Below are positions 18,501 through 54,740 of a DNA stretch of 64,000 nucleotides, one piece after another; the stretch's first letter is position 1, and every line of letters starts with the position of its first letter. Where the stretch lies: positions 102,920,001 through 102,984,000 of the forward strand of contig OZ024744.1 of NCBI GenBank assembly GCA_964016885.1, written 5' to 3'. The DNA is from Eledone cirrhosa (Eukaryota). Under the pieces are notes generated by a model that searched no databases, had not been told where the DNA came from, and saw only the letters and a program-made list of their open reading frames with translations. Position numbers and translations under genes: made by a program.

Positions 18501-20829
18501 TGTTTAAAGTGGTTCTGCTGCCATGAAACTAAAAAGTAACCAGTCCACTGTTTAAAGTGGTACTGTTGCAATGAAACTAAAAAGTAACCAGTCCACTGTT
18601 TAAAGTGGTACTGTTGCAATGAAACTAAAAAGTAGTCAGTCCACTGTTTAAAGTGGTCCTGCTGCCATGAAACTAAAAAGTAACCAGTCCAGTATTTAAA
18701 GTGGTCCTGCTGCCATGAAACTAAAAATTAGTCAGTCTACTGTTTAAAGTGGTCCTGTTGCCATGAAACTAAAAAGTGGTCAGTCTACTGTTCAAAGTGG
18801 TCCTGCTGCCATGAAACTAAAAAGTAGTCAGTCTACTGTTTAACTGGTCTTGTTGCCATGAAACTAAAAAGTAACCAGTCTACTGGTCAAAGTGGTCCTG
18901 CTGCCATGAAACTAAAAAGTAGTCAGTCAACTGTTTAAAGTGGTCCTGCTGCCATGAAACTAAAAAGTAGTCAGTCTACTGTTTAAACTGGTCCTGCTGC
19001 CATGAAACTAAAAAGTAACCAGTTCCACTGTTTAAAGTGGTCCTGTTGCCATGAAACTAAAAAGTAAACAGTCTACTGTTTAAAGTGGTCCTATTGCCAT
19101 GAAACTAAAAAGTAAACAGTCTACTGTTTAAAGTGGTCCTGTTGCCGTGAAACTAAAAAGTAACCATTCCACTGTTTAAAGTGATCCTGTTGCCATGAAA
19201 CCAAAAAGTAGTCAGTCCACTGTTTAAAGTGGTCCTGGTGCCATAAAACTATAAAGTAATCAGTCTACTGTTTAAAGTGGTCCTGCTGACATGAAACTAA
19301 AAAGTAGTCAGTCCATGTTTAAAGTGGTCCTGCTGCCATGAAACTAAAAAGTAGTCTGTCCACCGTTTAAAGTGGTCGTGCTGCCATGAAACTAAAAATA
19401 GTCAGTCCACTGTTTAAAGCGGTCCTGCTGCCAAGAAATTAAAAAGTAGTCAGTCTACTGTTTAAAGTGGTCCTTCTGCCATGAAAATAAAAAGTAGTCA
19501 GTCCACTGTTTAAAGTGGTCCTGCTGCCATGAAACTAAAAAGTAACCAGTCTACTGTTTAAAGTGGTCCTGTTGCCATGAAACTAAAGAGTAACCAGTCC
19601 ACTGTTTAAAGTGCTCCTGCTGCCATGAAACTAAAAATAGTCAGTCTACTTTTTAAAGTGGTCCTGTTGCCATGGAACTAAAAAGTAGTCAGTCCGATAT
19701 TTAAAGTGGTCCTGCTGCCATGAAACAAAAAAGTAGTCAGTCTACTGTTTAAAGTTATCCTGTTGCCATGAAACCAAAAAGTAACCAGTCCACTGTTTAA
19801 AGTGGTACTGTTGCAATGAAACTAAAAAGTAACCAGTCCACTGTTTAAAGTGGTACTGTTGCAATGAAACTAAAAAGTAGTCAGTCTACTGTTTAAAGTG
19901 GTCCTGCTGCCATGAAAATAAAAAGTAGTCAGTCCACTGTTTAAAGTGGTCCTGCTGTCATGAAACTAAAAAGTAACCAGTCTACTGCTTAAAGTGGTCC
20001 TGTTGCCATTAAACTAAAAAGTAACCAGTCAACTGTATAAAGTTGTCCTGCTGCCATGAAACTAAAAAGTAACCAGTCTACTGTTTAAAGTGGTCCTGTT
20101 GCCATGAAACTAAAGAGTAACCAGTCCACTGTTTAAAGTGCTCCTGCTGCCATGAAACTAAAAAGTAGTCAGTCTACTGTTTAAAGTGGTCCTGCTGCCA
20201 TGAAACTAAAAAGTAACCAGTCTACTGTTTAAAGTGGTCCTGCTGCCATGAAACTAAAAAGTAGTCAGTCTACTGTTTAAAGTAATCCTGTTGCCATGAA
20301 ACCAAAAAGTAGTCAGTCCACTGTTTAAAGTGGTCCTGCTGCCATGAAACTAAAAAGTAGTCAGTCTACTGTTTAAAGTGGTCCTGCTGCCATGAAACTA
20401 AAAAGTAACCAGTCTACTGTTTAAAGTGCTCCTGCTGCCATGAAACTAAAAAGTAGTCAGTCTACTGTTTAAAGTGGTCCTGCTGCCATGAAACTAAAAA
20501 GTAGTCAGTCTACTGTTTAAAGTGGTCCTGCTGCCATGAAACTAAAAAGTAACCAGTCTACTGTTTAAAGTGGTCCTGCTGCCATGGAACTAAAAAGTAA
20601 TCAGTCTACTGTTTAAAGTGGGCCTGCTGCTATGAAACTAAAAAGTAGTCAGTCCACTGTTTAAAGTGGTTCTGCTGCCATGAAACTAAAAAGTAACCAG
20701 TCCACTGTTTAAAGTGGTACTGTTGCAATGAAACTAAAAAGTAACCAGTCCACTGTTTAAAGTGGTACTGTTGCAATGAAACTAAAAAGTAGTCAGTCCA
20801 CTGTTTAAAGTGGTCCTGCTGCCATGAAA

Positions 20830-23800
20830 CTAAAAAGTAACCAGTCTACTGCTTAAAGTGGCCCTGTTGCCATGAAACTAAAAAGTAGTCAGTCTACTGT
20901 TTAAAGTGGTCCTGCTGCCATGAAACTAAAAAGTAGTCAGTCTACTGTTTAAAGTGGTCCTGTTGCCATGAAACTAAAAAAATAGTCAGTCTGCTGTTTA
21001 AAGTGGTCCTGCTGCCATGAAACTAAAAAGTAACCAGTCCAGTATTTAAAGTGGTCCTGCTGCCATGAAACTAAAAATTAGTCAGTCTACTGTTTAAAGT
21101 GGTCCTGTTGCCATGAAACTAAAAAGTGGTCAGTCTACTGTTCAAAGTGGTCCTGCTGCCATGGAACTAAAAAGTAGTCAGTCTACTGTTTAACTGGTCT
21201 TGTTGCCATGAAACTAAAAAGTAACCAGTCTACTGGTCAAAGTGGTCCTGCTGCCATGAAACTAAAAAGTAGTCAGTCAACTGTTTAAAGTGGTCCTGCT
21301 GCCATGAAACTAAAAAGTAGTCAGTCTACTGTTTAAACTGGCCCTGCTGCCATGAAACTAAAAAGTAACCAGTTCCACTGTTTAAAGTGGTCCTGTTGCC
21401 ATGAAACTAAAAAGTAAACAGTCTACTGTTTAAAGTGGTCCTGTTGCCATGAAACTAAAAAGTAAACAGTCTACTGTTTAAAGTGGTCCTGTTGCCGTGA
21501 AACTAAAAAGTAACCATTCCACTGTTTAAAGTGATTCTGTTGCCATGAAACCAAAAAGTAGTCAGTCCACTGTTTAAAGTGGTCCTGCTGCCATAAAACT
21601 ATAAAGTAATCAGTCTACTGTTTAAAGTGGTCCTGCTGCCATGAAACTAAAAAGTAGTCTGTCCACCGTTTAAAGTGGTCGTGCTGCCATGAAACTAAAA
21701 ATAGACAGTCCACTGTTTAAAGCGGTCCTGCTGCCAAGAAATTAAAAAGTAGTCAGTCTACTGTTTAAAGTGGTCCTTCTGCCATGAAACTAAAAAGTAA
21801 CCAGTCTACTGTTTAAAGTGGTCCTGTTGCCATGAAACTAAAGAGTAACCAGTCCACTGTTTAAAGTGCTCCTGCTGCGACGAAACTAAAAATAGTCAGT
21901 CTACTGTTTAAAGTTATCCTGTTGCCATGAAACCAAAAAGTAGTCAGTCCACTGTTTAAAGTGGTCCTGCTGCCATGAAACTAAAAAGTAGTCCATCTAC
22001 TGTTTAAAGTGGTCCTGCTGCCATGAAACTAAAAAGTAACCAGTCTACTGCTTAAAGTGGTTCTGTTGCCATGAAACTAAAAAGCAGTCAGTCTACTGTT
22101 TAAAGTGGTCCTGTTGCCATGAAACTCAAAAGTAACCAGTCCACTGTTTAATATGGTCCTGTTGCCATGAAACTAAAAAGTAGCCAGTCTACTGTTTAAA
22201 GTGGTCCTGCTGCCATGAAACTAAAAAGTAACCATTGCACTGTTTAAAGTGGTCCTGCTGCCATGAAACTAAAAAGTAGTCATTATACTGTTTAAAGTGG
22301 TTCTGCTGCCATGAAAGTAAAAAGTAACCAGTCCACTGTTTAAAGTGGTCCTGCTGCCATGAAACTAAAAAGTAACCAGTCTACTGCTTAAAGTGGCCCT
22401 GTTGCCATGAAACTAAAAAGTAGTCAGTCTACTGTTTAAAGTGGTCCTGCTGCCATGAAACTAAAAAGTAGTCAGTCTACTGTTTAAAGTGGTCCTGTTG
22501 CCATGAAACTAAAAAAATAGTCAGTCTGCTGTTTAAAGTGGTCCTGCTGCCATCAAACTAAAAAGTAACCAGTCCAGTATTTAAAGTGGTCCTGCTGCCA
22601 TGAAACTAAAAAGTAACCAGTCTACTGCTTAAAGTGGCCCTGTTGCCATGAAACTAAAAAGTAGTCAGTCTACTGTTTAAAGTGGTCCTGCTGCCATGAA
22701 ACTAAAAAGTAGTCAGTCTACTGTTTAAAGTGGTCCTGTTGCCATGAAACTAAAAAAATAGTCAGTCTGCTGTTTAAAGTGGTCCTGCTGCCATGAAACT
22801 AAAAAGTAACCAGTCCAGTATTTAAAGTGGTCCTGCTGCCATGAAACTAAAAATTAGTCAGTCTACTGTTTAAAGTGGTCCTGTTGCCATGAAACTAAAA
22901 AGTGGTCAGTCTACTGTTCAAAGTGGTCCTGCTGCCATGGAACTAAAAAGTAGTCAGTCTACTGTTTAACTGGTCTTGTTGCCATGAAACTAAAAAGTAA
23001 CCAGTCTACTGGTCAAAGTGGTCCTGCTGCCATGAAACTAAAAAGTAGTCAGTCAACTGTTTAAAGTGGTCCTGCTGCCATGAAACTAAAAAGTAGTCAG
23101 TCTACTGTTTAAACTGGCCCTGCTGCCATGAAACTAAAAAGTAACCAGTTCCACTGTTTAAAGTGGTCCTGTTGCCATGAAACTAAAAAGTAAACAGTCT
23201 ACTGTTTAAAGTGGTCCTGTTGCCATGAAACTAAAAAGTAAACAGTCTACTGTTTAAAGTGGTCCTGTTGCCGTGAAACTAAAAAGTAACCATTCCACTG
23301 TTTAAAGTGATTCTGTTGCCATGAAACCAAAAAGTAGTCAGTCCACTGTTTAAAGTGGTCCTGCGGCCATAAAACTATAAAGTAATCAGTCTACTGTTTA
23401 AAGTGGTCCTGCTGACATGAAACTAAAAAGTAGTCAGTCCATGTTTAAAGTGGTCCTGCTGCCATGAAACTAAAAAGTAGTCTGTCCACCGTTTAAAGTG
23501 GTCGTGCTGCCATGAAACTAAAAATAGACAGTCCACTGTTTAAAGCGGTCCTGCTGCCAAGAAATTAAAAAGTAGTCAGTCTACTGTTTAAAGTGGTCCT
23601 TCTGCCATGAAACTAAAAAGTAACCAGTCTACTGTTTAAAGTGGTCCTGTTGCCATGAAACGAAAGAGTAACCAGTCCACTGTTTAAAGTGCTCCTGCTG
23701 CGACGAAACTAAAAATAGTCAGTCTACTGTTTAAAGTTATCCTGTTGCCATGAAACCAAAAAGTAGTCAGTCCACTGTTTAAAGTGGTCCTGCTGCCATG

Positions 23801-24420
23801 AAACTAAAAAGTAGTCAGTCTACTGTTTAAAGTGGTCCTGCTGCCATGAAACTAAAAAGTAACCAGTCTACTGCTTAAAGTGGTTCTGTTGCCATGAAAC
23901 TAAAAAGCAGTCAGTCTACTGTTTAAAGTGGTCCTGTTGCCATGAAACTCAAAAGTAACCAGTCCACTGTTTAATATGGTCCTGTTGCCATGAAACTAAA
24001 AAGTAGCCAGTCTACTGTTTAAAGTGGTCCTGCTGCCATGAAACTAAAAAGTAACCATTGCACTGTTTAAAGTGGTCCTGCTGCCATGAAACTAAAAAGT
24101 AGTCATTATACTGTTTAAAGTGGTTCTGCTGCCATGAAAGTAAAAAGTAACCAGTCCACTGTTTAAAGTGGTCCTGCTGCCATGAAACTAAAAAGTAACC
24201 AGTCTACTGCTTAAAGTGGCCCTGTTGCCATGAAACTAAAAAGTAGTCAGTCTACTGTTTAAAGTGGTCCTGCTGCCATGAAACTAAAAAGTAGTCAGTC
24301 TACTGTTTAAAGTGGTCCTGTTGCCATGAAACTAAAAAAATAGTCAGTCTGCTGTTTAAAGTGGTCCTGCTGCCATCAAACTAAAAAGTAACCAGTCCAG
24401 TATTTAAAGTGGTCCTGCTG
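20830..24420 (+). repeat. 1,823-bp (38-monomer) tandem duplication, also present in the later copies; ends approximate
   Basis: ATAGACAG at 21701/23524, CGACGAAAC at 21878/23701 and CATTGCAC at 22233/24056 all show offset 1823. The same offset appears at 37981/39804. Confidence 0.85.
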
Positions 24421-27400
24421 CCATGAAACTAAAAATTAGTCAGTCTACTGTTTAAAGTGGTCCTGTTGCCATGAAACTAAAAAGTGGTCAGTCTACTGTT
24501 CAAAGTGGTCCTGCTGCCATGGAACTAAAAAGTAGTCAGTCTACTGTTTAACTGGTCTTGTTGCCATGAAACTAAAAAGTAACCAGTCTACTGGTCAAAG
24601 TGGTCCTGCTGCCATGAAACTAAAAAGTAGTCAGTCAACTGTTTAAAGTGGTCCTGCTGCCATGAAACTAAAAAGTAGTCAGTCTACTGTTTAAACTGGC
24701 CCTGCTGCCATGAAACTAAAAAGTAACCAGTTCCACTGTTTAAAGTGGTCCTGTTGCCATGAAACTAAAAAGTAAACAGTCTACTGTTTAAAGTGGTCCT
24801 GTTACCATGAAACTAAAAAGTAAACAGTCTACTGTTTAAAGTGGTCCTGTTGCCGTGAAACTAAAAAGTAACCATTCCACTGTTTACAGTGATCCTGTTG
24901 CCATGAAACCAAAAAGTAGTCAGTCCACTGTTTAAAGTGGTCCTGCTGCCATAAAACTATAAAGTAATCAGTCTACTGTTTAAAGTGGTCCTGCTGACAT
25001 GAAACTAAAAAGTAGTCAGTCCATGTTTAAAGTGGTCCTGCTGCCATGAAACTAAAAAGTAGTCTGTCCACCGTTTAAAGTGGTCGTGCTGCCATGAAAC
25101 TAAAAATAGTCAGTCCACTGTTTAAAGCGGTCCTGCTGCCAAGAAATTAAAAAGTAGTCAGTCTACTGTTTAAAGTGCTCCTGCTGCGACGAAACTAAAA
25201 ATAGTCAGTCTACTGTTTAAAGTGGTCCTGTTGCCATGAAACTCAAAAGTAACCAGTCCACTGTTTAATATGGTCCTGTTGCCTTGAAACTAAAAAGTAG
25301 CCAGTCTACTGTTTAAAGTGGTCCTGCTGCCATGAAACTAAAAAGTAACCATTGCACTGTTTAAAGTGGTCCTGCTGCCATGAAACTAAAAAGTAGTCAT
25401 TATACTGTTTAAAGTGGTTCTGCTGCCATGAAAGTAAAAAGTAACCAGTCCACTGTTTAAAGTGGTCCTGCTGCCATGAAACTAAAAAGTAGTCAGTCTA
25501 CTGTTTAAAGTGGTCCTGTTGCCATGAAACTAAAAAGTAGTCAGTCCACTGTTTAAAGTGGTCCTGCTGCCATGAAACTAAAAAGTAGTCAGTCTACTAT
25601 TTAAAGTGATCCTGTTGCCATGAAACCAAAAAGTAGTCAGTCCACTGTTTAAAGTGGTCCTGCTGCCATAAAACTATAAAGTAATCAGTCTACTGTTTAA
25701 AGTGGTCCTGTTGCAATGAAACTAAAGAGTAACCAGTCCACTGTTTAAAGTGCTCCTGCTGCCATGAAACTAAAAATAGTCAGTCTACTTTTTAAAGTGG
25801 TCCTGTTGCCATGAAACTAAAAAGTAGTCAGTCCGATATTTAAAGTGGTCCTGCTGCCATGAAACTAAAAAGTAGTCAGTCTACTGTTTAAAATTATCCT
25901 GTTGCCATGAAACCAAAAAGTAGTCAGTCCACTGTTTAAAGTGGTCCTGCTGCCATGAAACTAAAAAGTAGTCAGTCTACTGTTTAAAGTGGTCCTGCTG
26001 CCATGAAACTAAAAAGTAACCAGTCTACTGTTTAAAGTGGTCCTGCTGCCATGAAACTAAAATTTAGTCAGTCTACTGTTTAAAGTGGTCCTGCTGCCAT
26101 GAAAATAAAAAGTAGTCAGTCCACTGTTTAAAGTGGTCCTGCTGCCATGAAACTAAAAAGTAACCAGTCTACTGTATAAAGTTGTCCTGCTGCCATGAAA
26201 CTAAAAAGTAACCAGTCTACTGTTTAAAGTGGTCCTGTTGCCATGAAACTAAAGAGTAACCAGTCCACTGTTTAAAGTGCTCCTGCTGCCATGAAACTAA
26301 AAAGTAACCAGTCCACTGTTTAAAGTGGTACTGTTGCAATGAAACTAAAAAGTAGTCAGTCCACTGTTTAAAGTGGTCCTGCTGCCATGAAACTAAAAAG
26401 TAACCAGTCTACTGCTTAAAGTGGTCCTGTTGCCATGAAACTAAAAAGTAGTCAGTCTACTATTTAAAGTGATCCTGTTGCCATGAAACCAAAAAGTAGT
26501 CAGTCCACTGTTTAAAGTGGTCCTGCTGCCATAAAACTATAAAGTAATCAGTCTACTGTTTAAAGTGGTCCTGCTGACATGAAACTAAAAAGTAGTCAGT
26601 CCATGTTTAAAGTGGTCCTGCTGCCATGAAACTAAAAAGTAGTCTGTCCACCGTTTAAAGTGGTCGTGCTGCCATGAAACTAAAAATAGTCAGTCCACTG
26701 TTTAAAGCGGTCCTGCTGCTAAGAAATTAAAAAGTAGTCAGTCTACTGTTTAAAGTTGTCCTTCTGCCATGAAAATAAAAAGTAGTCAGTCCACTGTTTA
26801 AAGTGGTCCTGCTGCCATGAAACTAAAAAGTAACCAGTCTACTGTTTAAAGTGGTCCTGTTGCCATGAAACTAAAGAGTAACCAGTCCACTGTTTAAAGT
26901 GCTCCTGCTGCCATGAAACTAAAAATAGTCAGTCTACTTTTTAAAGTGGTCCTGTTGCCATGGAACTAAAAAGTAGTCAGTCCGATATTTAAAGTGGTCC
27001 TGCTGCCATGAAACTAAAAAGTAGTCAGTCTACTGTTTAAAGTTATCCTGTTGCCATGAAACCAAAAAGTAGTCAGTCCACTGTTTAAAGTGGTCCTGCT
27101 GCCATGAAAGTAAAAAGTAGTCAGTCTACTGTTTAAAGTGGTCCTGCTGCCATGAAACTAAAAAGTAACCAGTCTACTGTTTAAAGTGGTCCTGCTGCCA
27201 TGAAACTAAAAAGTAGTCAGACTACTGTTTAAAGTGGTTCTGCTGCCATGAAAATAAAAAGTAGTCAGTCCACTGTTTAAAGTGGTCCTGCTGTCATGAA
27301 ACTAAAAAGTAACCAGTCCACTGTTTAAAGTGGTACTGTTGCAATGAAACTAAAAAGTAACCAGTCCACTGTTTAAAGTGGTACTGTTGCAATGAAACTA

Positions 27401-30400
27401 AAAAGTAGTCAGTCCACTGTTTAAAGTGGTCCTGCTGCCATGAAACTAAAAAGTAACCAGTCTACTGCTTAAAGTGGTCCTGTTGCCATGAAACTAAAAA
27501 GTAGTCAGTCTACTGTTTAAAGTGGTCCTGCTGCCATGAAACTAAAAAGTAGTCAGTCTACTGTTTAAAGTGGTCCTGTTGCCATGAAACTAAAAAAATA
27601 GTCAGTCTGCTGTTTAAAGTGGTCCTGCTGCCATGAAACTAAAAAGTAACCAGTACAGTATTTAAAGTGGTCCTGCTGCCATGAAACTAAAAATTAGTCA
27701 GTCTACTGTTTAAAGTGGTCCTGTTGCCATGAAACTAAAAAGTGGTCAGTCTACTGTTCAAAGTGGTCCTGCTGCCATGAAACTAAAAAGTAGTCAGTCT
27801 ACTGTTCAACTGGTCTTGTTGCCATGAAACTAAAAAGTAACCAGTTCCACTGTTTAAAGTGGTCCTGTTGCCATGAAACTAAAAAGTAAACAGTCAACTG
27901 TTTAAAGTGGTCCTGTTGCCATGAAACTAAAAAGTAAACAGTCTACTGTTTAAAGTGGTCCTGTTGCCGTGAAACTAAAAAGTAACCATTCCACTGTTTA
28001 AAGTGATCCTGTTGCCATGAAACCAAAAAGTAGTCAGTCCACTGTTTAAAGTGGTCCTGCTGCCATAAAACTATAAAGTAATCAGTCTACTGTTTAAAGT
28101 GGTCCTGCTGACATGAAACTAAAAAGTAGTCAGTCCATGTTTAAAGTGGTCCTGCTGCCATGAAACTAAAAAGTAGTCTGTCCACTGTTTAAAGTGGTCG
28201 TGCTGCCATGAAACTAAAAATAGTCAGTCCACTGTTTAAAGCGGTCCTGCTGCCAAGAAATTAAAAAGTAGTCAGTCTACTGTTTAAAGTGGTCCTTCTG
28301 CCATGAAAATAAAAAGTAGTCAGTCCACTGTTTAAAGTGGTCCTGCTGCCATGAAACTAAAAAGTAACCAGTCTACTGTTTAAAGTGGTCCTGTTGCCAT
28401 GAAACTAAAGAGTAACCAGTCCACTGTTTAAAGTGCTCCTGCTGCCATGAAACTAAAAATAGTCAGTCTACTTTTTAAAGTGGTCCTGTTGCCATGAAAC
28501 TAAAAAGTAGTCAGTCCGATATTTAAAGTGGTCCTGCTTCCATGAAACTAAAAAGTAGTCAGTCTACTGTTTAAAGTGGTCCTGCTGCCATGAAACTAAA
28601 AAGTAACCAGTCTACTGTTTAAAGTGGTCCTGCTGCCATGAAACTAAAAAGTAGTCAGTCCACTGTTTAAAGTGGTCCTGCTGCCATGAAACTAAAAAGT
28701 AACCAGTCTATTGCTTAAAGTGGTCCTGCTGCCATGAAACTAAAAAGTAACCAGTCTACTGCTTAAAGTGGTCCTGTTGCCATGAAACTAAAAAGTAGTC
28801 AGTCTACTATTTAAAGTGATCCTGTTGCCATGAAACCAAAAAGTAGTCAGTCCACTGTTTAAAGTGGTCCTGCTGCCATAAAACTATAAAGTAATCAGTC
28901 TACTGTTTAAAGTGGTCCTGCTGACATGAAACTAAAAAGTAGTCAGTCCATGTTTAAAGTGGTCCTGCTGCCATGAAACTAAAAATAGTCAGTCCACTGT
29001 TTAAAGCGGTCCTGCTGCCAAGAAATTAAAAAGTAGTCAGTCTACTGTTTAAAGTGGTCCTTCTGCCATGAAAATAAAAAGTAGTCAGTCCACTGTTTAA
29101 AGTGGTCCTGCTGCCATGAAACTAAAAAGTAACCAGTCTACTGTTTAAAGTGGTCCTGTTGCCATGAAACTAAAGAGTAACCAGTCCACTGTTTAAAGTG
29201 CTCCTGCTGCCATGAAACTAAAAATAGTCAGTCTACTTTTTAAAGTAGTCCTGTTGCCATGGAACTAAAAAGTAGTCAGTCCGATATTTAAAGTGGTCCT
29301 GCTGCCATGAAACTAAAAAGTAGTCAGTCTACTGTTTAAAGTTATCCTGTTGCCATGAAACCAAAAAGTAGTCAGTCCACTGTTTAAAGTGGTCCTGCTG
29401 CCATGAAACTAAAAAGTAGTCAGTCTACTGTTTAAAGTGGTCCTGCTGCCATGAAACTAAAAAGTAACCAGTCTACTGTTTAAAGTGGTCCTGCTGCCAT
29501 GAAACTAAAAAGTAGTCAGTCTACTGTTTAAAGTGGTCCTGCTGCCATGAAAATAAAAAGTAGTCAGTCCACTGTTTAAAGTGGTCCTGCTGTCATGAAA
29601 CTAAAAAGTAACCAGTTCCACTGCTTAAAGTGGTCCTGTTGCCATTAAACTAAAAAGTAACCAGTCAACTGTATAAAGTTGTCCTGCTGCCATGAAACTA
29701 AAAAGTAACCAGTCTACTGTTTAAAGTGGTCCTGTTGCCATGAAACTAAAGAGTAACCAGTCCACTGTTTAAAGTGCTCCTGCTGCCATGAAACTAAAAA
29801 GTAGTCAGTCTACTTTTTAAAGTGGTCCTGCTGCCATGAAACTAAAAAGTAACCAGTCTACTGTTTAAAGTGGTCCTGCTGCCATGGAACTAAAAAGTAG
29901 TCAGTCTACTGTTTAAAGTGGTCCTGCTGCCATGGAACTAAAAAGTAATCAGTCTACTGTTTAAAGTGGGCCTGCTGCTATGAAACTAAAAAGTAGTCAG
30001 TCCACTGTTTAAAGTGGTTCTGCTGCCATGAAACTAAAAAGTAACCAGTCCACTGTTTAAAGTGGTACTGTTGCAATGAAACTAAAAAGTAACCAGTCCA
30101 CTGTTTAAAGTGGTACTGTTGCAATGAAACTAAAAAGTAGTCAGTCCACTGTTTAAAGTGGTCCTGCTGCCATGAAACTAAAAAGTAACCAGTCTACTGC
30201 TTAAAGTGGTCCTGTTGCCATGAAACTAAAAAAATAGTCAGTCTGCTGTTTAAAGTGGTCCTGCTGCCATGAAACTAAAAAGTAACCAGTCCAGTATTTA
30301 AAGTGGTCCTGTTGCCATGAAACTAAAAAATAGTCAGTCTACTGTTTAAAGTGGTCCTGTTGCCATGAAACTAAAAAGTAGTCAGTCCACTGTTTAAAGT

Positions 30401-32193
30401 GGTCCTGCTGCCATGAAACTAAGAAGTAACCAGTCTACTGCTTAAAGTGGTCCTGTTGCCATTAAACTAAAAAGTAACCAGTCAACTGTATAAAGTTGTC
30501 CTGCTGCCATGAAACTAAAAAGTAACTAGTCTACTGTTTAAAGTGGTCCTGTTGCCATGAAACTAAAGAGTAACCAGTCCACTGTTTAAAGTGCTCCTGC
30601 TGCCATGAAACTAAAAATAGTCAGTCTACTTTTTAAAGTGGTCCTGTTGCCATGAAACTAAAAAGTAGTCAGTCCGATATTTAAAGTGGTCCTGCTGCCA
30701 TGAAACTAAAAAGTAGTCAGTCTACTGCTTAAAGTAATCCTGTTGCCATGAAACCAAAAAGTAGTCAGTCCACTGTTTAAAGTGGTCCTGCTGCCATGAA
30801 ACTAAAAAGTAGTCAGTCTACTGTTTAAAGTGGTCCTGCTGCCATGAAACTAAAAAGTAACCAGTCTACTGTTTAAAGTGGTCCTGCTGCCATGAAACTA
30901 AAAAGTAGTCAGTCTACTGTTTAAAGTGGTCCTGCTTCCATGAAACTAAAAAGTAGTCAGTCTACTGTTTAAAGTGGTCCTGCTGCCATGAAACTAAAAA
31001 GTAACCAGTCTACTGTTTAAAGTGGTCCTGCTGCCATGGAACTAAAAAGTAATCAGTCTACTGTTTAAAATGGGCCTGCTGCTATGAAACTAAAAAGTAG
31101 TCAGTCCACTGTTTAAAGTGGTTCTGCTGCCATGAAACTAAAATTAACCAGTCCACTGTTTAAAGTGCTCCTGTTGCAATGAAACTAAAAAGTAGTCAGT
31201 CCACTGTTTAAAGTGGTCCTGCTGCCATGAAACTAAAATTAACCAGTCCACTGTTTAAAGTGGTACTGTTGCAATGAAACTAAAAAGTAACCAGTCCACT
31301 GTTTAAAGTGGTACTGTTGCAATGAAACTAAAAAGTAGTCAGTCCACTGTTTAAAGTGGTCCTGCTGCCATGAAACTAAAAAGTAACCAGTCTATTGCTT
31401 AAAGTGGTCCTGCTGCCATGAAACTAAAAAGTAACCAGTCTACTGCTTAAAGTGGTCCTGTTGCCATGAAACTAAAAAGTAGTCAGTCTACTATTTAAAG
31501 TGATCCTGTTGCCATGAAACCAAAAAGTAGTCAGTCCACTGTTTAACTGGTCTTGTTGCCATGAAACTAAAAAGTAACCAGTTCCACTGTTTAAAGTGGT
31601 CCTGTTGCCATGAAACTAAAAAGTAAACAGTCTACTGTTTAAAGTGGTCCTGTTGCCATGAAACTAAAAAGTAAACAGTCTACTGTTTAAAGTGGTCCTG
31701 TTGCCGTGAAACTAAAAAGTAACCATTCCACTGTTTAAAGTGATCCTGTTGCCATGAAACCAAAAAGTAGTCAGTCCACTGTTTAAAGTGGTCCTGCTGC
31801 CATAAAACTATAAAGTAATCAGTCTACTGTTTAAAGTGGTCCTGCTGACATGAAACTAAAAAGTAGTCAGTCCATGTTTAAAGTGGTCCTGCTGCCATGA
31901 AACTAAAAAGTAGTCTGTCCACTGTTTAAAGTGGTCGTGCTGCCATGAAACTAAAAATAGTCAGTCCACTGTTTAAAGCGGTCCTGCTGCCAAGAAATTA
32001 AAAAGTAGTCAGTCTACTGTTTAAAGTGGTCCTTCTGCCATGAAAATAAAAAGTAGTCAGTCCACTGTTTAAAGTGGTCCTGTTGCCATGAAACTAAAGA
32101 GTAACCAGTCCACTGTTTAAAGTGCTCCTGCTGCCATGAAACTAAAAATAGTCAGTCTACTTTTTAAAGTGGTCCTGTTGCCATGAAACTAAA

Positions 32194-32498
32194 TATCGGA
32201 CTGACTACTTTTTAGTTTCATGGCAACAGGACCACTTTAAAAAGTAGACTGACTACTTTTTAGTTTCATGGCAGCAGGACCACTTTAAACAGTAGACTGG
32301 TTACTTTTTAGTTTCATGGCAGCAGGACCACTTTAAACAGTAGACTGACTACTTTTTAGTTTCATGGCAGCAGGACCACTTTAAACAGTGGACTGACTAC
32401 TTTTTGGTTTCATGGCAACAGGATTACTTTAAACAGTAGACTGACTACTTTTTAGTTTCATGGCAGCAGGACCACTTTAAATATCGGACTGACTACTT
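32194..32498 (-). repeat. 305-bp inverted satellite segment (6 monomers plus 17 nt), copy 1
   Basis: It reads as the reverse complement of the array (TTTTTAGTTTCATGGCAGCAGGACCACTTTAAACAGTAGACTGACTAC). It begins and ends with TATCGGACTGACTACTT (32194 and 32482, 288 bp apart) and is flanked by TAAA (32190-32193) and TTTA (32499-32502). Confidence 0.98.
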
Positions 32499-34473
32499 TT
32501 TAAAGTGGTCCTGCTGCCATGAAACTAAAAAGTAGTCAGTCTACTGTTTAAAGTAATCCTGTTGCCATGAAACCAAAAAGTAGTCAGTCCACTGTTTAAA
32601 GTGGTCCTGCTGCCATGAAACTAAAAAGTAGTCAGTCTACTGTTTAAAGTGGTCCTGCTGCCATGAAACTAAAAAGTAACCAGTCTACTGTTTAAAGTGG
32701 TCCTGCTGCCATGAAACTAAAAAGTAGTCAGTCTACTGTTTAAAGTGGTCCTGCTTCCATGAAACTAAAAAGTAGTCAGTCTACTGTTTAAAGTGGTCCT
32801 GCTGCCATGAAACTAAAAAGTAACCAGTCTACTGTTTAAAGTGGTCCTGCTGCCATGAAACTAAAAAGTAGTCAGTATACTGTTTAAAGTGGTCCTGCTG
32901 CCATGGAACTAAAAAGTAATCAGTCTACTGTTTAAAGTGGGCCTGCTGCTATGAAACTAAAAAGTAGTCAGTCCACTGTTTAAAGTGGTTCTGCTGCCAT
33001 GAAACTAAAATTAACCAGTCCACTGTTTAAAGTGGTCCTGTTGCAATGAAACTAAAAAGTAGTCAGTCCACTGTTTAAAGTGGTCCTGCTGCCATGAAAC
33101 TAAAATTAACCAGTCCACTGTTTAAAGTGGTACTGTTGCAATGAAACTAAAAAGTAACCAGTCCACTGTTTAAAGTGGTACTGTTGCAATGAAACTAAAA
33201 AGTAGTCAGTCCACGGTTTAAAGTGGTCCTGCTGCCATGAAACTAAAAAGTAACCAGTCTATTGCTTAAAGTGGTCCTGCTGCCATGAAGCTAAAAAGTA
33301 ACCAGTCAACTGCTTAAAGTGGTCCTGTTGCCATGAAACTAAAAAGTAGTCAGTCTACTATTTAAAGTGATCCTGTTGCCATGAAACCAAAAAGTAGTCA
33401 GTCCACTGTTTAAAGTGGTCCTGCTGCCATAAAACTATAAAGTAATCAGTCTACTGTTTAAAGTGGTCCTGCTGACATGAAACTAAAAAGTAGTCAGTCC
33501 ATGTTTAAAGTGGTCCTGCTGCCATGAAACTAAAAATAGTCAGTCCACTGTTTAAAGCGGTCCTGCTGCCAAGAAATTAAAAAGTAGTCAGTCTACTGTT
33601 TAAAGTGGTCCTTCTGCCATGAAAATAAAAAGTAGTCAGTCCACTGTTTAAAGTGGTCCTGCTGCCATGAAACTAAAAAGTAACCAGTCTACTGTTTAAA
33701 GTGGTCCTGTTGCCATGAAACTAAAGAGTAACCAGTCCACTGTTTAAAGTGCTCCTGCTGCCATGAAACTAAAAATAGTCAGTCTACTGTTTAAAGTTAT
33801 CCTGTTGCCATGAAACCAAAAAGTAGTCAGTCCACTGTTTAAAGTGGTCCTGCTGCCATGAAACTAAAAAGTAGTCAGTCTACTGTTTAAAGTGGTCCTG
33901 CTGCCATGAAACTAAAAAGTAACCAGTCTACTGTTTAAAGTGGTCCTGCTGCCATGAAACTAAAAAGTAGTCAGTCTACTGTTTAAAGTGGTCCTGCTGC
34001 CATGAAAATAAAAAGTAGTCAGTCCACTGTTTAAAGTGGTCCTGCTGTCATGAAACTAAAAAGTAACCAGTCTACTGCTTAAAGTGGTCCTGTTGCCATT
34101 AAACTAAAAAGTAACCAGTCAACTGTATAAAGTTGTCCTGCTGCCATGAAACTAAAAAGTAACCAGTCTACTGTTTAAAGTGGTCCTGTTGCCATGAAAC
34201 TAAAGAGTAACCAGTCCACTGTTTAAAGTGCTCCTGCTGCCATGAAACTAAAAAGTAGTCAGTCTACTTTTTAAAGTGGTCCTGCTGCCATGAAACTAAA
34301 AAGTAACCAGTCTACTGTTTAAAGTGGTCCTGCTGCCATGGAACTAAAAAGTAGTCAGTCTACTGTTTAAAGTGGTCCTGCTGCCATGGAACTAAAAAGT
34401 AATCAGTCTACTGTTTAAAGTGGGCCTGCTGCTATGAAACTAAAAAGTAGTCAGTCCACTGTTTAAAGTGGTT

Positions 34474-37400
34474 CTGCTGCCATGAAACTAAAAAGTAACC
34501 AGTCCACTGTTTAAAGTGGTACTGTTGCAATGAAACTAAAAAGTAACCAGTCCACTGTTTAAAGTGGTACTGTTGCAATGAAACTAAAAAGTAGTCAGTC
34601 CACTGTTTAAAGTGGTCCTGCTGCCATGAAACTAAAAAGTAACCAGTCTACTGCTTAAAGTGGTCCTGTTTCCATGAAACTAAAAAAATAGTCAGTCTGC
34701 TGTTTAAAGTGGTCCTGCTGCCATGAAACTAAAAAGTAACCAGTCCAGTATTTAAAGTGGTCCTGTTGCCATGAAACTAAAAAATAGTCAGTCTACTGTT
34801 TAAAGTGGTCCTGTTGCCATGAAACTAAAAAGTGGTCAGTCTACTGTTCAAAGTGGTCCTGCTTCCATGAAACTAAAAAGTAGTCAGTCTACTGTTTAAC
34901 TGGTCTTGTTGCCATGAAACTAAAAAGTAACCAGTCTACTGGTCAAAGTGGTCCTGCTGCCATGAAACTAAAAAGTAGTCAGTCAACTGTTTAAAGTGGT
35001 CCTGCTGCCATGAAACTAAAAAGTAGTCAGTCTACTGTTTAAACTGGTCCTGCTGCCATGAAACTAAAAAGTAACCAGTTCCACTGTTTAAAGTGGTCCT
35101 GTTGCCATGAAACTAAAAAGTAAACAGTCTACTGTTTAAAGTGGTCCTGTTGCCATGAAACTAAAAAGTAAACAGTCTACTGTTTAAAGTGGTCCTGTTG
35201 CCGTGAAACTAAAAAGTAACCATTCCACTGTTTAAAGTGATCCTGTTGCCATGAAACCAAAAAGTAGTCAGTCCACTGTTTAAAGTGGTCCTGGTGCCAT
35301 AAAACTATAAAGTAATCAGTCTACTGTTTAAAGTGGTCCTGCTGACATGAAACTAAAAAGTAGTCAGTCCATGTTTAAAGTGGTCCTGCTGCCATGAAAC
35401 TAAAAAGTAGTCTGTCCACCGTTTAAAGTGGTCGTGCTGCCATGAAACTAAAAATAGTCAGTCCACTGTTTAAAGCGGTCCTGCTGCCAAGAAATTAAAA
35501 AGTAGTCAGTCTACTGTTTAAAGTGGTCCTTCTGCCATGAAAATAAAAAGTAGTCAGTCCACTGTTTAAAGTGGTCCTGCTGCCATGAAACTAAAAAGTA
35601 ACCAGTCTACTGTTTAAAGTGGTCCTGTTGCCATGAAACTAAAGAGTAACCAGTCCACTGTTTAAAGTGCTCCTGCTGCCATGAAACTAAAAATAGTCAG
35701 TCTACTTTTTAAAGTGGTCCTGTTGCCATGGAACTAAAAAGTAGTCAGTCCGATATTTAAAGTGGTCCTGCTGCCATGAAACAAAAAAGTAGTCAGTCTA
35801 CTGTTTAAAGTTATCCTGTTGCCATGAAACCAAAAAGTAACCAGTCCACTGTTTAAAGTGGTACTGTTGCAATGAAACTAAAAAGTAACCAGTCCACTGT
35901 TTAAAGTGGTACTGTTGCAATGAAACTAAAAAGTAGTCAGTCTACTGTTTAAAGTGGTCCTGCTGCCATGAAAATAAAAAGTAGTCAGTCCACTGTTTAA
36001 AGTGGTCCTGCTGTCATGAAACTAAAAAGTAACCAGTCTACTGCTTAAAGTGGTCCTGTTGCCATTAAACTAAAAAGTAACCAGTCAACTGTATAAAGTT
36101 GTCCTGCTGCCATGAAACTAAAAAGTAACCAGTCTACTGTTTAAAGTGGTCCTGTTGCCATGAAACTAAAGAGTAACCAGTCCACTGTTTAAAGTGCTCC
36201 TGCTGCCATGAAACTAAAAAGTAGTCAGTCTACTGTTTAAAGTGGTCCTGCTGCCATGAAACTAAAAAGTAACCAGTCTACTGTTTAAAGTGGTCCTGCT
36301 GCCATGAAACTAAAAAGTAGTCAGTCTACTGTTTAAAGTAATCCTGTTGCCATGAAACCAAAAAGTAGTCAGTCCACTGTTTAAAGTGGTCCTGCTGCCA
36401 TGAAACTAAAAAGTAGTCAGTCTACTGTTTAAAGTGGTCCTGCTGCCATGAAACTAAAAAGTAACCAGTCTACTGTTTAAAGTGCTCCTGCTGCCATGAA
36501 ACTAAAAAGTAGTCAGTCTACTGTTTAAAGTGGTCCTGCTGCCATGAAACTAAAAAGTAGTCAGTCTACTGTTTAAAGTGGTCCTGCTGCCATGAAACTA
36601 AAAAGTAACCAGTCTACTGTTTAAAGTGGTCCTGCTGCCATGGAACTAAAAAGTAATCAGTCTACTGTTTAAAGTGGGCCTGCTGCTATGAAACTAAAAA
36701 GTAGTCAGTCCACTGTTTAAAGTGGTTCTGCTGCCATGAAACTAAAAAGTAACCAGTCCACTGTTTAAAGTGGTACTGTTGCAATGAAACTAAAAAGTAA
36801 CCAGTCCACTGTTTAAAGTGGTACTGTTGCAATGAAACTAAAAAGTAGTCAGTCCACTGTTTAAAGTGGTCCTGCTGCCATGAAACTAAAAAGTAACCAG
36901 TCTACTGCTTAAAGTGGCCCTGTTGCCATGAAACTAAAAAGTAGTCAGTCTACTGTTTAAAGTGGTCCTGCTGCCATGAAACTAAAAAGTAGTCAGTCTA
37001 CTGTTTAAAGTGGTCCTGTTGCCATGAAACTAAAAAAATAGTCAGTCTGCTGTTTAAAGTGGTCCTGCTGCCATGAAACTAAAAAGTAACCAGTCCAGTA
37101 TTTAAAGTGGTCCTGCTGCCATGAAACTAAAAATTAGTCAGTCTACTGTTTAAAGTGGTCCTGTTGCCATGAAACTAAAAAGTGGTCAGTCTACTGTTCA
37201 AAGTGGTCCTGCTGCCATGGAACTAAAAAGTAGTCAGTCTACTGTTTAACTGGTCTTGTTGCCATGAAACTAAAAAGTAACCAGTCTACTGGTCAAAGTG
37301 GTCCTGCTGCCATGAAACTAAAAAGTAGTCAGTCAACTATTTAAAGTGGTCCTGCTGCCATGAAACTAAAAAGTAGTCAGTCTACTGTTTAAACTGGCCC

Positions 37401-40400
37401 TGCTGCCATGAAACTAAAAAGTAACCAGTTCCACTGTTTAAAGTGGTCCTGTTGCCATGAAACTAAAAAGTAAACAGTCTACTGTTTAAAGTGGTCCTGT
37501 TGCCATGAAACTAAAAAGTAAACAGTCTACTGTTTAAAGTGGTCCTGTTGCCGTGAAACTAAAAAGTAACCATTCCACTGTTTAAAGTGATTCTGTTGCC
37601 ATGAAACCAAAAAGTAGTCAGTCCACTGTTTAAAGTGGTCCTGCTGCCATAAAACTATAAAGTAATCAGTCTACTGTTTAAAGTGGTCCTGCTGACATGA
37701 AACTAAAAAGTAGTCAGTCCATGTTTAAAGTGGTCCTGCTGCCATGAAACTAAAAAGTAGTCTGTCCACCGTTTAAAGTGGTCGTGCTGCCATGAAACTA
37801 AAAATAGACAGTCCACTGTTTAAAGCGGTCCTGCTGCCAAGAAATTAAAAAGTAGTCAGTCTACTGTTTAAAGTGGTCCTTCTGCCATGAAACTAAAAAG
37901 TAACCAGTCTACTGTTTAAAGTGGTCCTGTTGCCATGAAACTAAAGAGTAACCAGTCCACTGTTTAAAGTGCTCCTGCTGCGACGAAACTAAAAATAGTC
38001 AGTCTACTGTTTAAAGTTATCCTGTTGCCATGAAACCAAAAAGTAGTCAGTCCACTGTTTAAAGTGGTCCTGCTGCCATGAAACTAAAAAGTAGTCCATC
38101 TACTGTTTAAAGTGGTCCTGCTGCCATGAAACTAAAAAGTAACCAGTCTACTGCTTAAAGTGGTTCTGTTGCCATGAAACTAAAAAGCAGTCAGTCTACT
38201 GTTTAAAGTGGTCCTGTTGCCATGAAACTCAAAAGTAACCAGTCCACTGTTTAATATGGTCCTGTTGCCATGAAACTAAAAAGTAGCCAGTCTACTGTTT
38301 AAAGTGGTCCTGCTGCCATGAAACTAAAAAGTAACCATTGCACTGTTTAAAGTGGTCCTGCTGCCATGAAACTAAAAAGTAGTCATTATACTGTTTAAAG
38401 TGGTTCTGCTGCCATGAAAGTAAAAAGTAACCAGTCCACTGTTTAAAGTGGTCCTGCTGCCATGAAACTAAAAAGTAACCAGTCTACTGCTTAAAGTGGC
38501 CCTGTTGCCATGAAACTAAAAAGTAGTCAGTCTACTGTTTAAAGTGGTCCTGCTGCCATGAAACTAAAAAGTAGTCAGTCTACTGTTTAAAGTGGTCCTG
38601 TTGCCATGAAACTAAAAAAATAGTCAGTCTGCTGTTTAAAGTGGTCCTGCTGCCATCAAACTAAAAAGTAACCAGTCCAGTATTTAAAGTGGTCCTGCTG
38701 CCATGAAACTAAAAAGTAACCAGTCTACTGCTTAAAGTGGCCCTGTTGCCATGAAACTAAAAAGTAGTCAGTCTACTGTTTAAAGTGGTCCTGCTGCCAT
38801 GAAACTAAAAAGTAGTCAGTCTACTGTTTAAAGTGGTCCTGTTGCCATGAAACTAAAAAAATAGTCAGTCTGCTGTTTAAAGTGGTCCTGCTGCCATGAA
38901 ACTAAAAAGTAACCAGTCCAGTATTTAAAGTGGTCCTGCTGCCATGAAACTAAAAATTAGTCAGTCTACTGTTTAAAGTGGTCCTGTTGCCATGAAACTA
39001 AAAAGTGGTCAGTCTACTGTTCAAAGTGGTCCTGCTGCCATGGAACTAAAAAGTAGTCAGTCTACTGTTTAACTGGTCTTGTTGCCATGAAACTAAAAAG
39101 TAACCAGTCTACTGGTCAAAGTGGTCCTGCTGCCATGAAACTAAAAAGTAGTCAGTCAACTGTTTAAAGTGGTCCTGCTGCCATGAAACTAAAAAGTAGT
39201 CAGTCTACTGTTTAAACTGGCCCTGCTGCCATGAAACTAAAAAGTAACCAGTTCCACTGTTTAAAGTGGTCCTGTTGCCATGAAACTAAAAAGTAAACAG
39301 TCTACTGTTTAAAGTGGTCCTGTTGCCATGAAACTAAAAAGTAAACAGTCTACTGTTTAAAGTGGTCCTGTTGCCGTGAAACTAAAAAGTAACCATTCCA
39401 CTGTTTAAAGTGATTCTGTTGCCATGAAACCAAAAAGTAGTCAGTCCACTGTTTAAAGTGGTCCTGCTGCCATAAAACTATAAAGTAATCAGTCTACTGT
39501 TTAAAGTGGTCCTGCTGACATGAAACTAAAAAGTAGTCAGTCCATGTTTAAAGTGGTCCTGCTGCCATGAAACTAAAAAGTAGTCTGTCCACCGTTTAAA
39601 GTGGTCGTGCTGCCATGAAACTAAAAATAGACAGTCCACTGTTTAAAGCGGTCCTGCTGCCAAGAAATTAAAAAGTAGTCAGTCTACTGTTTAAAGTGGT
39701 CCTTCTGCCATGAAACTAAAAAGTAACCAGTCTACTGCTTAAAGTGGTCCTGTTGCCATGAAACGAAAGAGTAACCAGTCCACTGTTTAAAGTGCTCCTG
39801 CTGCGACGAAACTAAAAATAGTCAGTCTACTGTTTAAAGTTATCCTGTTGCCATGAAACCAAAAAGTAGTCAGTCCACTGTTTAAAGTGGTCCTGCTGCC
39901 ATGAAACTAAAAAGTAGTCAGTCTACTGTTTAAAGTGGTCCTGCTGCCATGAAACTAAAAAGTAACCAGTCTACTGCTTAAAGTGGTTCTGTTGCCATGA
40001 AACTAAAAAGCAGTCAGTCTACTGTTTAAAGTGGTCCTGTTGCCATGAAACTCACAAGTAACCAGTCCACTGTTTAATATGGTCCTGTTGCCATGAAACT
40101 AAAAAGTAGCCAGTCTACTGTTTAAAGTGGTCCTGCTGCCATGAAACTAAAAAGTAACCATTGCACTGTTTAAAGTGGTCCTGCTGCCATGAAACTAAAA
40201 AGTAGTCATTATACTGTTTAAAGTGGTTCTGCTGCCATGAAAGTAAAAAGTAACCAGTCCACTGTTTAAAGTGGTCCTGCTGCCATGAAACTAAAAAGTA
40301 ACCAGTCTACTGCTTAAAGTGGCCCTGTTGCCATGAAACTAAAAAGTAGTCAGTCTACTGTTTAAAGTGGTCCTGCTGCCATGAAACTAAAAAGTAGTCA

Positions 40401-43400
40401 GTCTACTGTTTAAAGTGGTCCTGTTGCCATGAAACTAAAAAAATAGTCAGTCTGCTGTTTAAAGTGGTCCTGCTGCCATCAAACTAAAAAGTAACCAGTC
40501 CAGTATTTAAAGTGGTCCTGCTGCCATGAAACTAAAAATTAGTCAGTCTACTGTTTAAAGTGGTCCTGTTGCCATGAAACTAAAAAGTGGTCAGTCTACT
40601 GTTCAAAGTGGTCCTGCTGCCATGGAACTAAAAAGTAGTCAGTCTACTGTTTAACTGGTCTTGTTGCCATGAAACTAAAAAGTAACCAGTCTACTGGTCA
40701 AAGTGGTCCTGCTGCCATGAAACTAAAAAGTAGTCAGTCAACTGTTTAAAGTGGTCCTGCTGCCATGAAACTAAAAAGTAACCAGTCCACTGTTTAAAGT
40801 GGTACTGTTGCAATGAAACTAAAAAGTAACCAGTCCACTGTTTAAAGTGGTACTGTTGCAATGAAACTAAAAAGTAGTCAGTCCACTGTTTAAAGTGGTC
40901 CTGCTGCCATGAAACTAAAAAGTAACCAGTCTACTGCTTAAAGTGGTCCTGTTTCCATGAAACTAAAAAAATAGTCAGTCTGCTGTTTAAAGTGGTCCTG
41001 CTGCCATGAAACTAAAAAGTAACCAGTCCAGTATTTAAAGTGGTCCTGTTGCCATGAAACTAAAAAATAGTCAGTCTACTGTTTAAAGTGGTCCTGTTGC
41101 CATGAAACTAAAAAGTGGTCAGTCTACTGTTCAAAGTGGTCCTGCTTCCATGAAACTAAAAAGTAGTCAGTCTACTGTTTAACTGGTCTTGTTGCCATGA
41201 AACTAAAAAGTAACCAGTCTACTGGTCAAAGTGGTCCTGCTGCCATGAAACTAAAAAGTAGTCAGTCAACTGTTTAAAGTGGTCCTGCTGCCATGAAACT
41301 AAAAAGTAGTCAGTCTACTGTTTAAACTGGTCCTGCTGCCATGAAACTAAAAAGTAACCAGTTCCACTGTTTAAAGTGGTCCTGTTGCCATGAAACTAAA
41401 AAGTAAACAGTCTACTGTTTAAAGTGGTCCTGTTGCCATGAAACTAAAAAGTAAACAGTCTACTGTTTAAAGTGGTCCTGTTGCCGTGAAACTAAAAAGT
41501 AACCATTCCACTGTTTAAAGTGATCCTGTTGCCATGAAACCAAAAAGTAGTCAGTCCACTGTTTAAAGTGGTCCTGGTGCCATAAAACTATAAAGTAATC
41601 AGTCTACTGTTTAAAGTGGTCCTGCTGACATGAAACTAAAAAGTAGTCAGTCCATGTTTAAAGTGGTCCTGCTGCCATGAAACTAAAAAGTAGTCTGTCC
41701 ACCGTTTAAAGTGGTCGTGCTGCCATGAAACTAAAAATAGTCAGTCCACTGTTTAAAGCGGTCCTGCTGCCAAGAAATTAAAAAGTAGTCAGTCTACTGT
41801 TTAAAGTGGTCCTTCTGCCATGAAAATAAAAAGTAGTCAGTCCACTGTTTAAAGTGGTCCTGCTGCCATGAAACTAAAAAGTAACCAGTCTACTGTTTAA
41901 AGTGGTCCTGTTGCCATGAAACTAAAGAGTAACCAGTCCACTGTTTAAAGTGCTCCTGCTGCCATGAAACTAAAAATAGTCAGTCTACTTTTTAAAGTGG
42001 TCCTGTTGCCATGGAACTAAAAAGTAGTCAGTCCGATATTTAAAGTGGTCCTGCTGCCATGAAACAAAAAAGTAGTCAGTCTACTGTTTAAAGTTATCCT
42101 GTTGCCATGAAACCAAAAAGTAACCAGTCCACTGTTTAAAGTGGTACTGTTGCAATGAAACTAAAAAGTAACCAGTCCACTGTTTAAAGTGGTACTGTTG
42201 CAATGAAACTAAAAAGTAGTCAGTCTACTGTTTAAAGTGGTCCTGCTGCCATGAAAATAAAAAGTAGTCAGTCCACTGTTTAAAGTGGTCCTGCTGTCAT
42301 GAAACTAAAAAGTAACCAGTCTACTGCTTAAAGTGGTCCTGTTGCCATTAAACTAAAAAGTAACCAGTCAACTGTATAAAGTTGTCCTGCTGCCATGAAA
42401 CTAAAAAGTAACCAGTCTACTGTTTAAAGTGGTCCTGTTGCCATGAAACTAAAGAGTAACCAGTCCACTGTTTAAAGTGCTCCTGCTGCCATGAAACTAA
42501 AAAGTAGTCAGTCTACTGTTTAAAGTGGTCCTGCTGCCATGAAACTAAAAAGTAACCAGTCTACTGTTTAAAGTGGTCCTGCTGCCATGAAACTAAAAAG
42601 TAGTCAGTCTACTGTTTAAAGTAATCCTGTTGCCATGAAACCAAAAAGTAGTCAGTCCACTGTTTAAAGTGGTCCTGCTGCCATGAAACTAAAAAGTAGT
42701 CAGTCTACTGTTTAAAGTGGTCCTGCTGCCATGAAACTAAAAAGTAACCAGTCTACTGTTTAAAGTGCTCCTGCTGCCATGAAACTAAAAAGTAGTCAGT
42801 CTACTGTTTAAAGTGGTCCTGCTGCCATGAAACTAAAAAGTAGTCAGTCTACTGTTTAAAGTGGTCCTGCTGCCATGAAACTAAAAAGTAACCAGTCTAC
42901 TGTTTAAAGTGGTCCTGCTGCCATGGAACTAAAAAGTAATCAGTCTACTGTTTAAAGTGGGCCTGCTGCTATGAAACTAAAAAGTAGTCAGTCCACTGTT
43001 TAAAGTGGTTCTGCTGCCATGAAACTAAAAAGTAACCAGTCCACTGTTTAAAGTGGTACTGTTGCAATGAAACTAAAAAGTAACCAGTCCACTGTTTAAA
43101 GTGGTACTGTTGCAATGAAACTAAAAAGTAGTCAGTCCACTGTTTAAAGTGGTCCTGCTGCCATGAAACTAAAAAGTAACCAGTCTACTGCTTAAAGTGG
43201 CCCTGTTGCCATGAAACTAAAAAGTAGTCAGTCTACTGTTTAAAGTGGTCCTGCTGCCATGAAACTAAAAAGTAGTCAGTCTACTGTTTAAAGTGGTCCT
43301 GTTGCCATGAAACTAAAAAAATAGTCAGTCTGCTGTTTAAAGTGGTCCTGCTGCCATGAAACTAAAAAGTAACCAGTCCAGTATTTAAAGTGGTCCTGCT

Positions 43401-54435: not shown

Positions 54436-54740
54436 TATCGGACTGACTACTTTTTAGTTTCATGGCAACAGGACCACTTTAAAAAGTAGACTGACTACTT
54501 TTTAGTTTCATGGCAGCAGGACCACTTTAAACAGTAGACTGGTTACTTTTTAGTTTCATGGCAGCAGGACCACTTTAAACAGTAGACTGACTACTTTTTA
54601 GTTTCATGGCAGCAGGACCACTTTAAACAGTGGACTGACTACTTTTTGGTTTCATGGCAACAGGATTACTTTAAACAGTAGACTGACTACTTTTTAGTTT
54701 CATGGCAGCAGGACCACTTTAAATATCGGACTGACTACTT
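54436..54740 (-). repeat. 305-bp inverted satellite segment, copy 2
   Basis: Same sequence and junctions as 32194-32498 by eye. TATCGGACTGACTACTT lies at 54436 and 54724, with TAAA at 54432-54435 and TTTA at 54741-54744. Confidence 0.98.

Follow-up and report, generated by a model that had tools for sequence, protein, structure and literature searches.

Two fold-back junctions on one 17-nt spacer in a 48-bp satellite array of Eledone cirrhosa

Clean microinversions of 17-33 nt have been described between inverted repeats of 3-75 nt, and their formation is unsettled between template switching and break repair (Potapova et al. 2022, PMC8755829). In small inverted triplications (SITs), which are linked to FEN1 loss and to the ends of Okazaki fragments, one segment occurs in the order forward-inverted-forward and a junction lies at either end of it (Lei et al. 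2026, PMC13334657). Origin-dependent inverted-repeat amplification, or ODIRA, gives inverted triplications by a leading-to-lagging strand switch at inverted repeats that are 2-14 bp long and interrupted (Martin et al. 2024, PMC10766183; Brewer et al. 2024, PMC10766186). In human satellites, strand switches are reported to be randomly spread, and microhomology data are absent from the excerpt of that report (bioRxiv 10.64898/2026.07.22.740206). Here we describe an inverted insert in a 48-bp satellite of Eledone cirrhosa, located in a stretch of 64,000 nucleotides (the window; assembly GCA_964016885.1, contig OZ024744.1, positions 102,920,001 to 102,984,000 of the forward strand). The insert has both of its fold-back junctions on one 17-nt spacer and shares its array with two plain microinversions in the same register, which together suggest a two-ended intermediate.

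Anatomy of the inverted block

The whole window (1..64000, + strand) consists of the 48-bp tandem repeat and forms the middle portion of one array of ~330 kb. We added 200 kb on each side of the window, giving 464 kb in total with 0 N, in which the array comprises ~6,900 monomers in a single orientation. Positions are window-relative unless prefixed L or C28. The inverted block measures 305 bp (32194..32498, - strand), or extends over 32190-32502 when the 4-bp TAAA/TTTA ambiguity at its boundaries is included, and is made up of an inverted spacer, 271 bp of inverted arm sequence (A'/B') and a second inverted spacer. On its left, arm A (45 bp; 32149..32193, + strand) ends in TAAA, and on its right, arm B (239 bp; 32499..32737, + strand) starts with TTTA. 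Junction 1 (32190..32214) consists of TAAA, the inverted 17-nt spacer (32194-32210) and TTTA, and folds back onto A, such that the adjoining A' (32211..32255, - strand) is a perfect inverted copy of all 45 bp of 32149-32193. Junction 2 (32478..32502; inverted spacer 32482-32498) folds back onto B, of which B' (32243..32481, - strand) is a perfect inverted copy, matching the 239 bp of 32499-32737. The two junctions form an identical 25-bp direct repeat. A third junction joins the arms in register within 13 bp common to A' and B' (32243..32255, - strand), and its context has no forward-orientation occurrence anywhere.

Re-inverting the block in silico produces a perfect 288-bp tandem duplication, in which 301 bp are identical at lag 288. 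On balance the locus has gained 288 bp, and zero bases were lost or added. Comparison of the arms thus confirms the initial annotation, which had read the locus as an inverted insert with the same spacer at both junctions, a gain of 288 bp and nothing lost, and its description of the insert as a circular permutation of its flanks is borne out by the permuted 288 bp and the 25-bp direct repeat. The shortest exact parse from the local ancestor has four segments, with the first and last switch at one site: the path runs forward to TAAA, backward through the spacer and A, jumps in register, runs backward through B and the spacer, and continues forward from TTTA.

The whole structure is present a second time, in identical form, at 54391..54979 (inverted block 54436-54740), a copy that the initial annotation had missed. 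Both copies sit within a duplication of ~16 kb, extending approximately over 18600..35200 (+ strand) and 41000..57500 (+ strand), with 11 substitutions between them over 15,626 aligned bp and four monomer-scale indels; the insert therefore represents one event, copied once and recent. The inferred ancestral haplotype has an exact match in an unrearranged paralogue at 52727..53232 (+ strand; spacer 52857-52873), where the identity extends 130 bp to the left and 359 bp to the right. The paralogue near 30663, proposed previously as the unrearranged form, has the expected order of arm, spacer and arm but differs from the insert at one base (30728). Searching the species' own genome for other fold-backs of either polarity returned only these two inserts within the satellite, and four unrelated short palindromes elsewhere.

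The insert and arm B create a perfect 239-bp palindrome with a 17-nt spacer (32243-32737 and 54485-54979), intact in both copies and predicted to fold at -300 kcal/mol as a single strand. Palindromic structures of this kind were lost from plasmids in the SIT study (PMC13334657). Downstream of the insert by 1.3 kb, a unit at 33750-33845 shows the usual context but has lost, in register, 96 bp comprising the CCGATA monomer and the next monomer. Recent duplications are nested within the region of about 18600-57500, and their lags are about 22.2-22.4 kb, 16.1 kb, 6.3 kb and 1.5-1.8 kb.

At the level of the genome (3.0 Gb), a 32-mer of the 48-bp unit has 779 forward and 6 reverse matches, all inside the fetched region, where an independent count gives the same numbers. 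The repeat is single-locus so far as this probe can see. A genome search without a match does not prove rarity. At its left end (L013, about -121000 to -114350), the array consists of a related 43/46-bp repeat that lacks the TTTAAA ending, merges seamlessly with the 48-bp unit and may be an older form of it. Many monomers in L029-L038 (106,850-202,840) are 64-65 bp long through a 17-bp tandem duplication of the monomer end, and one carries three copies of that end (82 bp). This duplication equals the inverted spacer in length but differs in register. The array is made of non-coding DNA, and nothing here implies a function or a phenotype.

Plain microinversions and the odds of a shared site

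Two further inversions occur in the array, neither of them reported by the initial annotation, and both are clean 17-nt flips between the same TAAA and TTTA in other monomer types. One is present in two copies (L028:7117-7141 and L029:762-786) and the other in seven (L033:3533, L033:9835, L034:2440, L034:4993, L034:6673, L034:9968 and L035:8711). Each reverts exactly to a standing monomer type, has its own neighbours and was amplified together with them; the two are likely to be independent of each other. A 16-mer scan of the array revealed no inversions beyond these and the 305-bp block. Five short 12-14-mer signals resembled point variants by their context and were excluded from the count.

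All three inversion events, amounting to 11 copies among ~6,900 monomers, run from TAAA to TTTA. The consensus monomer offers 14 inverted-microhomology registers of at least 4 bp with a spacer of up to 60, and under even choice the use of one of these by three of three events has a chance of about 0.5% (n = 3). The common monomer folds weakly at the TAAA/TTTA site (-4.0 kcal/mol), and the three monomers actually hit fold worse, at 0.0 kcal/mol for the CCGATA monomer, which supplied the spacer of the insert, and at -1.1 and -0.5 kcal/mol for the other two. A hairpin or cruciform drive at the CCGATA monomer was rejected on this basis, there being no predicted hairpin. None of the three events lies in the strongest-hairpin class, which contains 31% of 4,621 sites, a result that is not significant at n = 3, and the breaks of all three are at the outer 4 bp. 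Microhomology beside a break or stall would fit these data better than an extruded cruciform.

To what extent could the two fold-back junctions share a site by coincidence? We considered monomer pairs 2-12 apart in the array, excluding monomers beside the two inserts. The same spacer with 45 bp on each side was found in 62 of 33,677 pairs (0.18%), and 83 (0.25%) lay within a near-perfect whole-period tandem duplication; at a lag of six monomers the count was 0 of 3,065. A duplication and an inversion that are independent of each other produce such an alignment in about 0.2% of cases. These statistics bear out the argument of the initial annotation that a shared site speaks against a random inversion. 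Its emphasis on the rarity of the monomer fared less well: both breaks do fall in the same monomer, but spacers with 25 copies or fewer occur at 1,011 of 4,544 sites, so the rarity of CCGATA is not special in itself and merely makes the event readable.

Routes to the inverted block

We give a probability of roughly 0.5 to one act of repair at a single monomer, where both ends prime inverted synthesis at the 4-nt inverted repeat and their tails anneal in register. Two ends would arise at the TAAA-17 nt-TTTA site from a break or from two stalled strands, and each would prime backward synthesis through the 4-nt repeat. The left end would gain the inverted spacer and at least 32-45 nt of A', and the right end the spacer and at least 226-239 nt of B. 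Being opposite strands of one satellite, A' and B pair in register, and the two new tails would anneal six monomers out of step, after which flaps would be trimmed and gaps filled. The finished insert was later copied by the ~16-kb duplication. Pairing at the spacer instead would yield a plain 17-nt microinversion. For the spacer to become inverted, either priming would have to use the opposite strand, provided by a sister chromatid or the lagging template, or hairpin caps that had closed would have to be opened on the parental strand; the sequence alone is compatible with both.

In simulation, this two-ended route reproduces the observed sequence exactly. Different products were obtained from direct intra-strand fold-back of both ends, from a four-point switch of type 3-1-4-2 and from one staggered two-break inversion. 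The two-ended route alone needs no coincidence, since both ends of a break share one place. Its elements have precedents: when the spacer is broken, short inverted repeats can be invaded asymmetrically (PMC8755829), 4-bp stems are used beside a break, and the other end of that break can capture fold-back tails by single-strand annealing (both PMC7467729). This reading was not considered by the initial annotation.

Several points weigh against it. Three other models yield the identical sequence, as our simulations bore out for each of those in the initial annotation (a reintegrated circle, a duplication followed by an inversion, and a copy with three switches); the choice thus depends on parsimony and priors. 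We infer the break, the priming and the annealing from one event in one assembly, and two rare primings on 4 nt are demanded within one repair. The donor is not provably local, given an upstream paralogue with the same A and B. Cruciform cutting is implausible at the CCGATA monomer because it has no predicted hairpin. Changes that would perfect the palindrome are not enriched: 22 monomer types have G41T and 54 have G41A, while at A25 the counts are 8 for A25C, 12 for A25G and 8 for A25T, so that the stem bears no broader mark of template switching. Finally, the evidence for the structure comes from the assembled sequence.

More tentatively, and as a possibility that we hold to be less probable than the two-ended route itself, the microinversions and the insert may be two outcomes of one two-ended intermediate that folds back at a single site through the same 4-nt inverted repeat. 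Clean rejoining in unique DNA would be possible at the spacer only and would give a microinversion; in a satellite, the ends could also rejoin in register further in, and the twin fold-back would preserve the intermediate. If so, satellite arrays would record the formation of microinversions, and TAAA/TTTA would be a fixed point of breakage or stalling in the monomer, independent of hairpin strength. Whether an inverted tract leaves at its entry monomer can be counted in any set of satellite assemblies. The insert also illustrates how inverted monomers and a 239-bp palindrome, both potential seeds of larger strand switches, can enter a one-way satellite. The value of the insert is that of a readable, intermediate-like product beside simpler siblings, and its mechanistic interest is modest.

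The main rival, which we consider rather unlikely, is serial template switching by one nascent strand, in effect a run-on microinversion and the closest of the initial models to our own. The strand would pass at TAAA to the opposite strand, copy the inverted spacer with A' and, after an in-register slip of six monomers, B' with the inverted spacer, before returning at TTTA. This path is the minimal four-segment parse, its register is identical to that of the microinversions and its sizes are akin to those of SITs (PMC13334657); spacer-inverting switches between strands are, moreover, common in human-chimp data (Loytynoja and Goldman 2017, PMC5453318). However, the return to the entry monomer would be due to chance, as the inverted tract holds 12 TTTA exits, of which 6 share the hairpin register. 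Ordinary monomers also have longer stem homology than the CCGATA monomer, and ODIRA junctions favour spacings of 40-80 bp, with nearer repeats expected to self-pair (PMC10766183).

A 288-bp tandem duplication followed by a plain 305-bp inversion, from TAAA of copy 1 to TTTA of copy 2, would give the sequence in two ordinary steps, and monomer-scale gains and losses are frequent (four in the 16-kb duplication). The initial annotation had named two forward CCGATA monomers 288 bp apart as the intermediate of this route. The assembly contains 21 forward CCGATA monomers and 0 such pairs, and no forward CCGATA monomer lies 288 bp before or after the insert; these searches for intermediates, like those below, cover one assembly, and alleles may have been lost. 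The closest forward pair is 575 bp (12 monomers) apart, in L020-L021 (C28:102887038 and 102887613). Perfect tandem duplications of at least four monomers number just 3 in 330 kb, none of them of six monomers (periods up to 1,000 bp), and the 83 of 33,677 pairs given above are all that occupy equivalent places in a near-perfect duplication. This order of events appears improbable.

Long perfect palindromes are a known library artefact, and a fold-back chimera or a mis-join therefore deserves consideration, all the more as the two copies could be two haplotypes set in tandem. When 33 sampled words were sought in 10 listed sequencing runs, their share was 0.12-0.48 in five runs and reached half in none, which speaks neither for nor against the structure. 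On the other side, all three junctions recur in the second copy, whose surroundings have diverged by the substitutions and indels described above. A fold-back chimera has one junction rather than three. The array resumes its own orientation and register after the block, the 464 kb are free of N, and nine short inversions in varied contexts use the same register. The inverted structure is real in the assembly, and given its two settings and three-junction anatomy, an artefact is unlikely, to a degree similar to the preceding route.

According to the first model of the initial annotation, the spacer was micro-inverted first, and an excised 288-bp circle then integrated through the 25-bp identity. 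This yields the sequence and accounts for the direct repeat, and microinversion at the TAAA/TTTA register is real, as seen in two other monomer types. Its predicted intermediate, an inverted spacer between unrearranged arms, was not recovered: a 24-mer across the left junction has two genome matches, both in these inserts, as does the right junction. Micro-inverted CCGATA monomers number 0 against 21 forward, and micro-inverted monomers of any type are merely 9 of ~6,900. The circle would also have to carry the exact haplotype with an uninverted spacer and, with 288 bp of direct homology on offer at thousands of sites, to choose 25 bp of inverted homology instead. No deletion scar is present beside the insert in this assembly. 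We regard this route as very improbable. A 1.5-kb inverted triplication between neighbouring CCGATA monomers (that at 30663 and that of the insert), with its inverted middle later collapsed in register to 288 bp, could draw on a related unit 1,520 bp upstream and on the known secondary deletion of palindrome arms (PMC10766183; PMC10766186), but is largely refuted, as the flanking units differ by four substitutions and gaps of 48, 240 and 48 bp (measured on the copy-2 pair, since a first alignment with 23 mismatches looked sub-optimal against the monomer table) and the distal monomer order of the downstream unit matches the unit at 28481 rather than the upstream unit, which makes them older paralogues and not fresh copies.

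Comparison with known inverted rearrangements

The two 17-nt events of the array fit the microinversion class fully, and each junction of the insert bears the same signature (PMC8755829). The model proposed for that class is one-ended and copy-neutral, in contrast to the insert, with its gain of 288 bp and its spacer inverted twice. The insert resembles a SIT in its inverted centre, a few hundred bp long, in its pair of short spacers and in the inverted microhomology, a few bp in length, of both junctions; the medians for fragment, spacer and microhomology are 160, 30 and 6 bp in SITs compared with 305, 17 and 4 bp here (PMC13334657). Unlike a SIT, it has both junctions on one site, and a third, in-register junction joins arms of which the left copies upstream DNA (45 bp) and the right downstream DNA (239 bp). 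The insert is not a SIT: it shares the short spacers and the microhomology but lacks the forward-inverted-forward arrangement of one segment. Nor does it belong to the four-point switches, ODIRA or the simple fold-back duplications, to which it is compared below.

Four-point template switches likewise produce an inverted spacer and new inverted repeats by copying between strands (PMC5453318). Junction 1 resembles the start of type 3-1-2-4 and junction 2 the end of type 1-3-4-2. However, the four-point model has three pieces with one inverted fragment, whereas the insert needs four pieces, and type 3-1-4-2 gives a different sequence with one central spacer. Palindromic junctions are shared with ODIRA (PMC10766183; PMC10766186), in which they bracket an amplified segment that holds an origin and favour the 40-80 bp spacing noted above (PMC10766183). 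In the insert, the two junction sites fall on one monomer with nothing between them, over a span of 25 bp. A reintegrated circle resembles the insert in being a circular permutation of local DNA (288 bp) bounded by a direct repeat (25 bp); a micro-inverted CCGATA target and an excision scar were both absent from the one assembly, in which circles themselves are invisible.

The insert has in common with fold-back inverted duplications a palindromic arm, a spacer and a few bp of inverted microhomology (Hermetz et al. 2014, PMC3907307; Li, Putnam and Kolodner 2020, PMC7467729), as well as a resolution by annealing with the other end of a break (PMC7467729). Those duplications differ in involving a single fold-back, with terminal loss or a dicentric intermediate (PMC3907307; PMC7467729). 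Direct intra-strand priming keeps the spacer forward, while in the insert it is inverted and nothing is lost; by our reasoning, closed hairpins opened on the parental strand would invert it. We found no description of two fold-back junctions on one spacer in the literature, our coverage of which is incomplete, and the table of SIT events may hold such cases. In its workings the insert is like a short-range inverted template switch or fold-back, and it is a new variant within the known scars of replication or repair.

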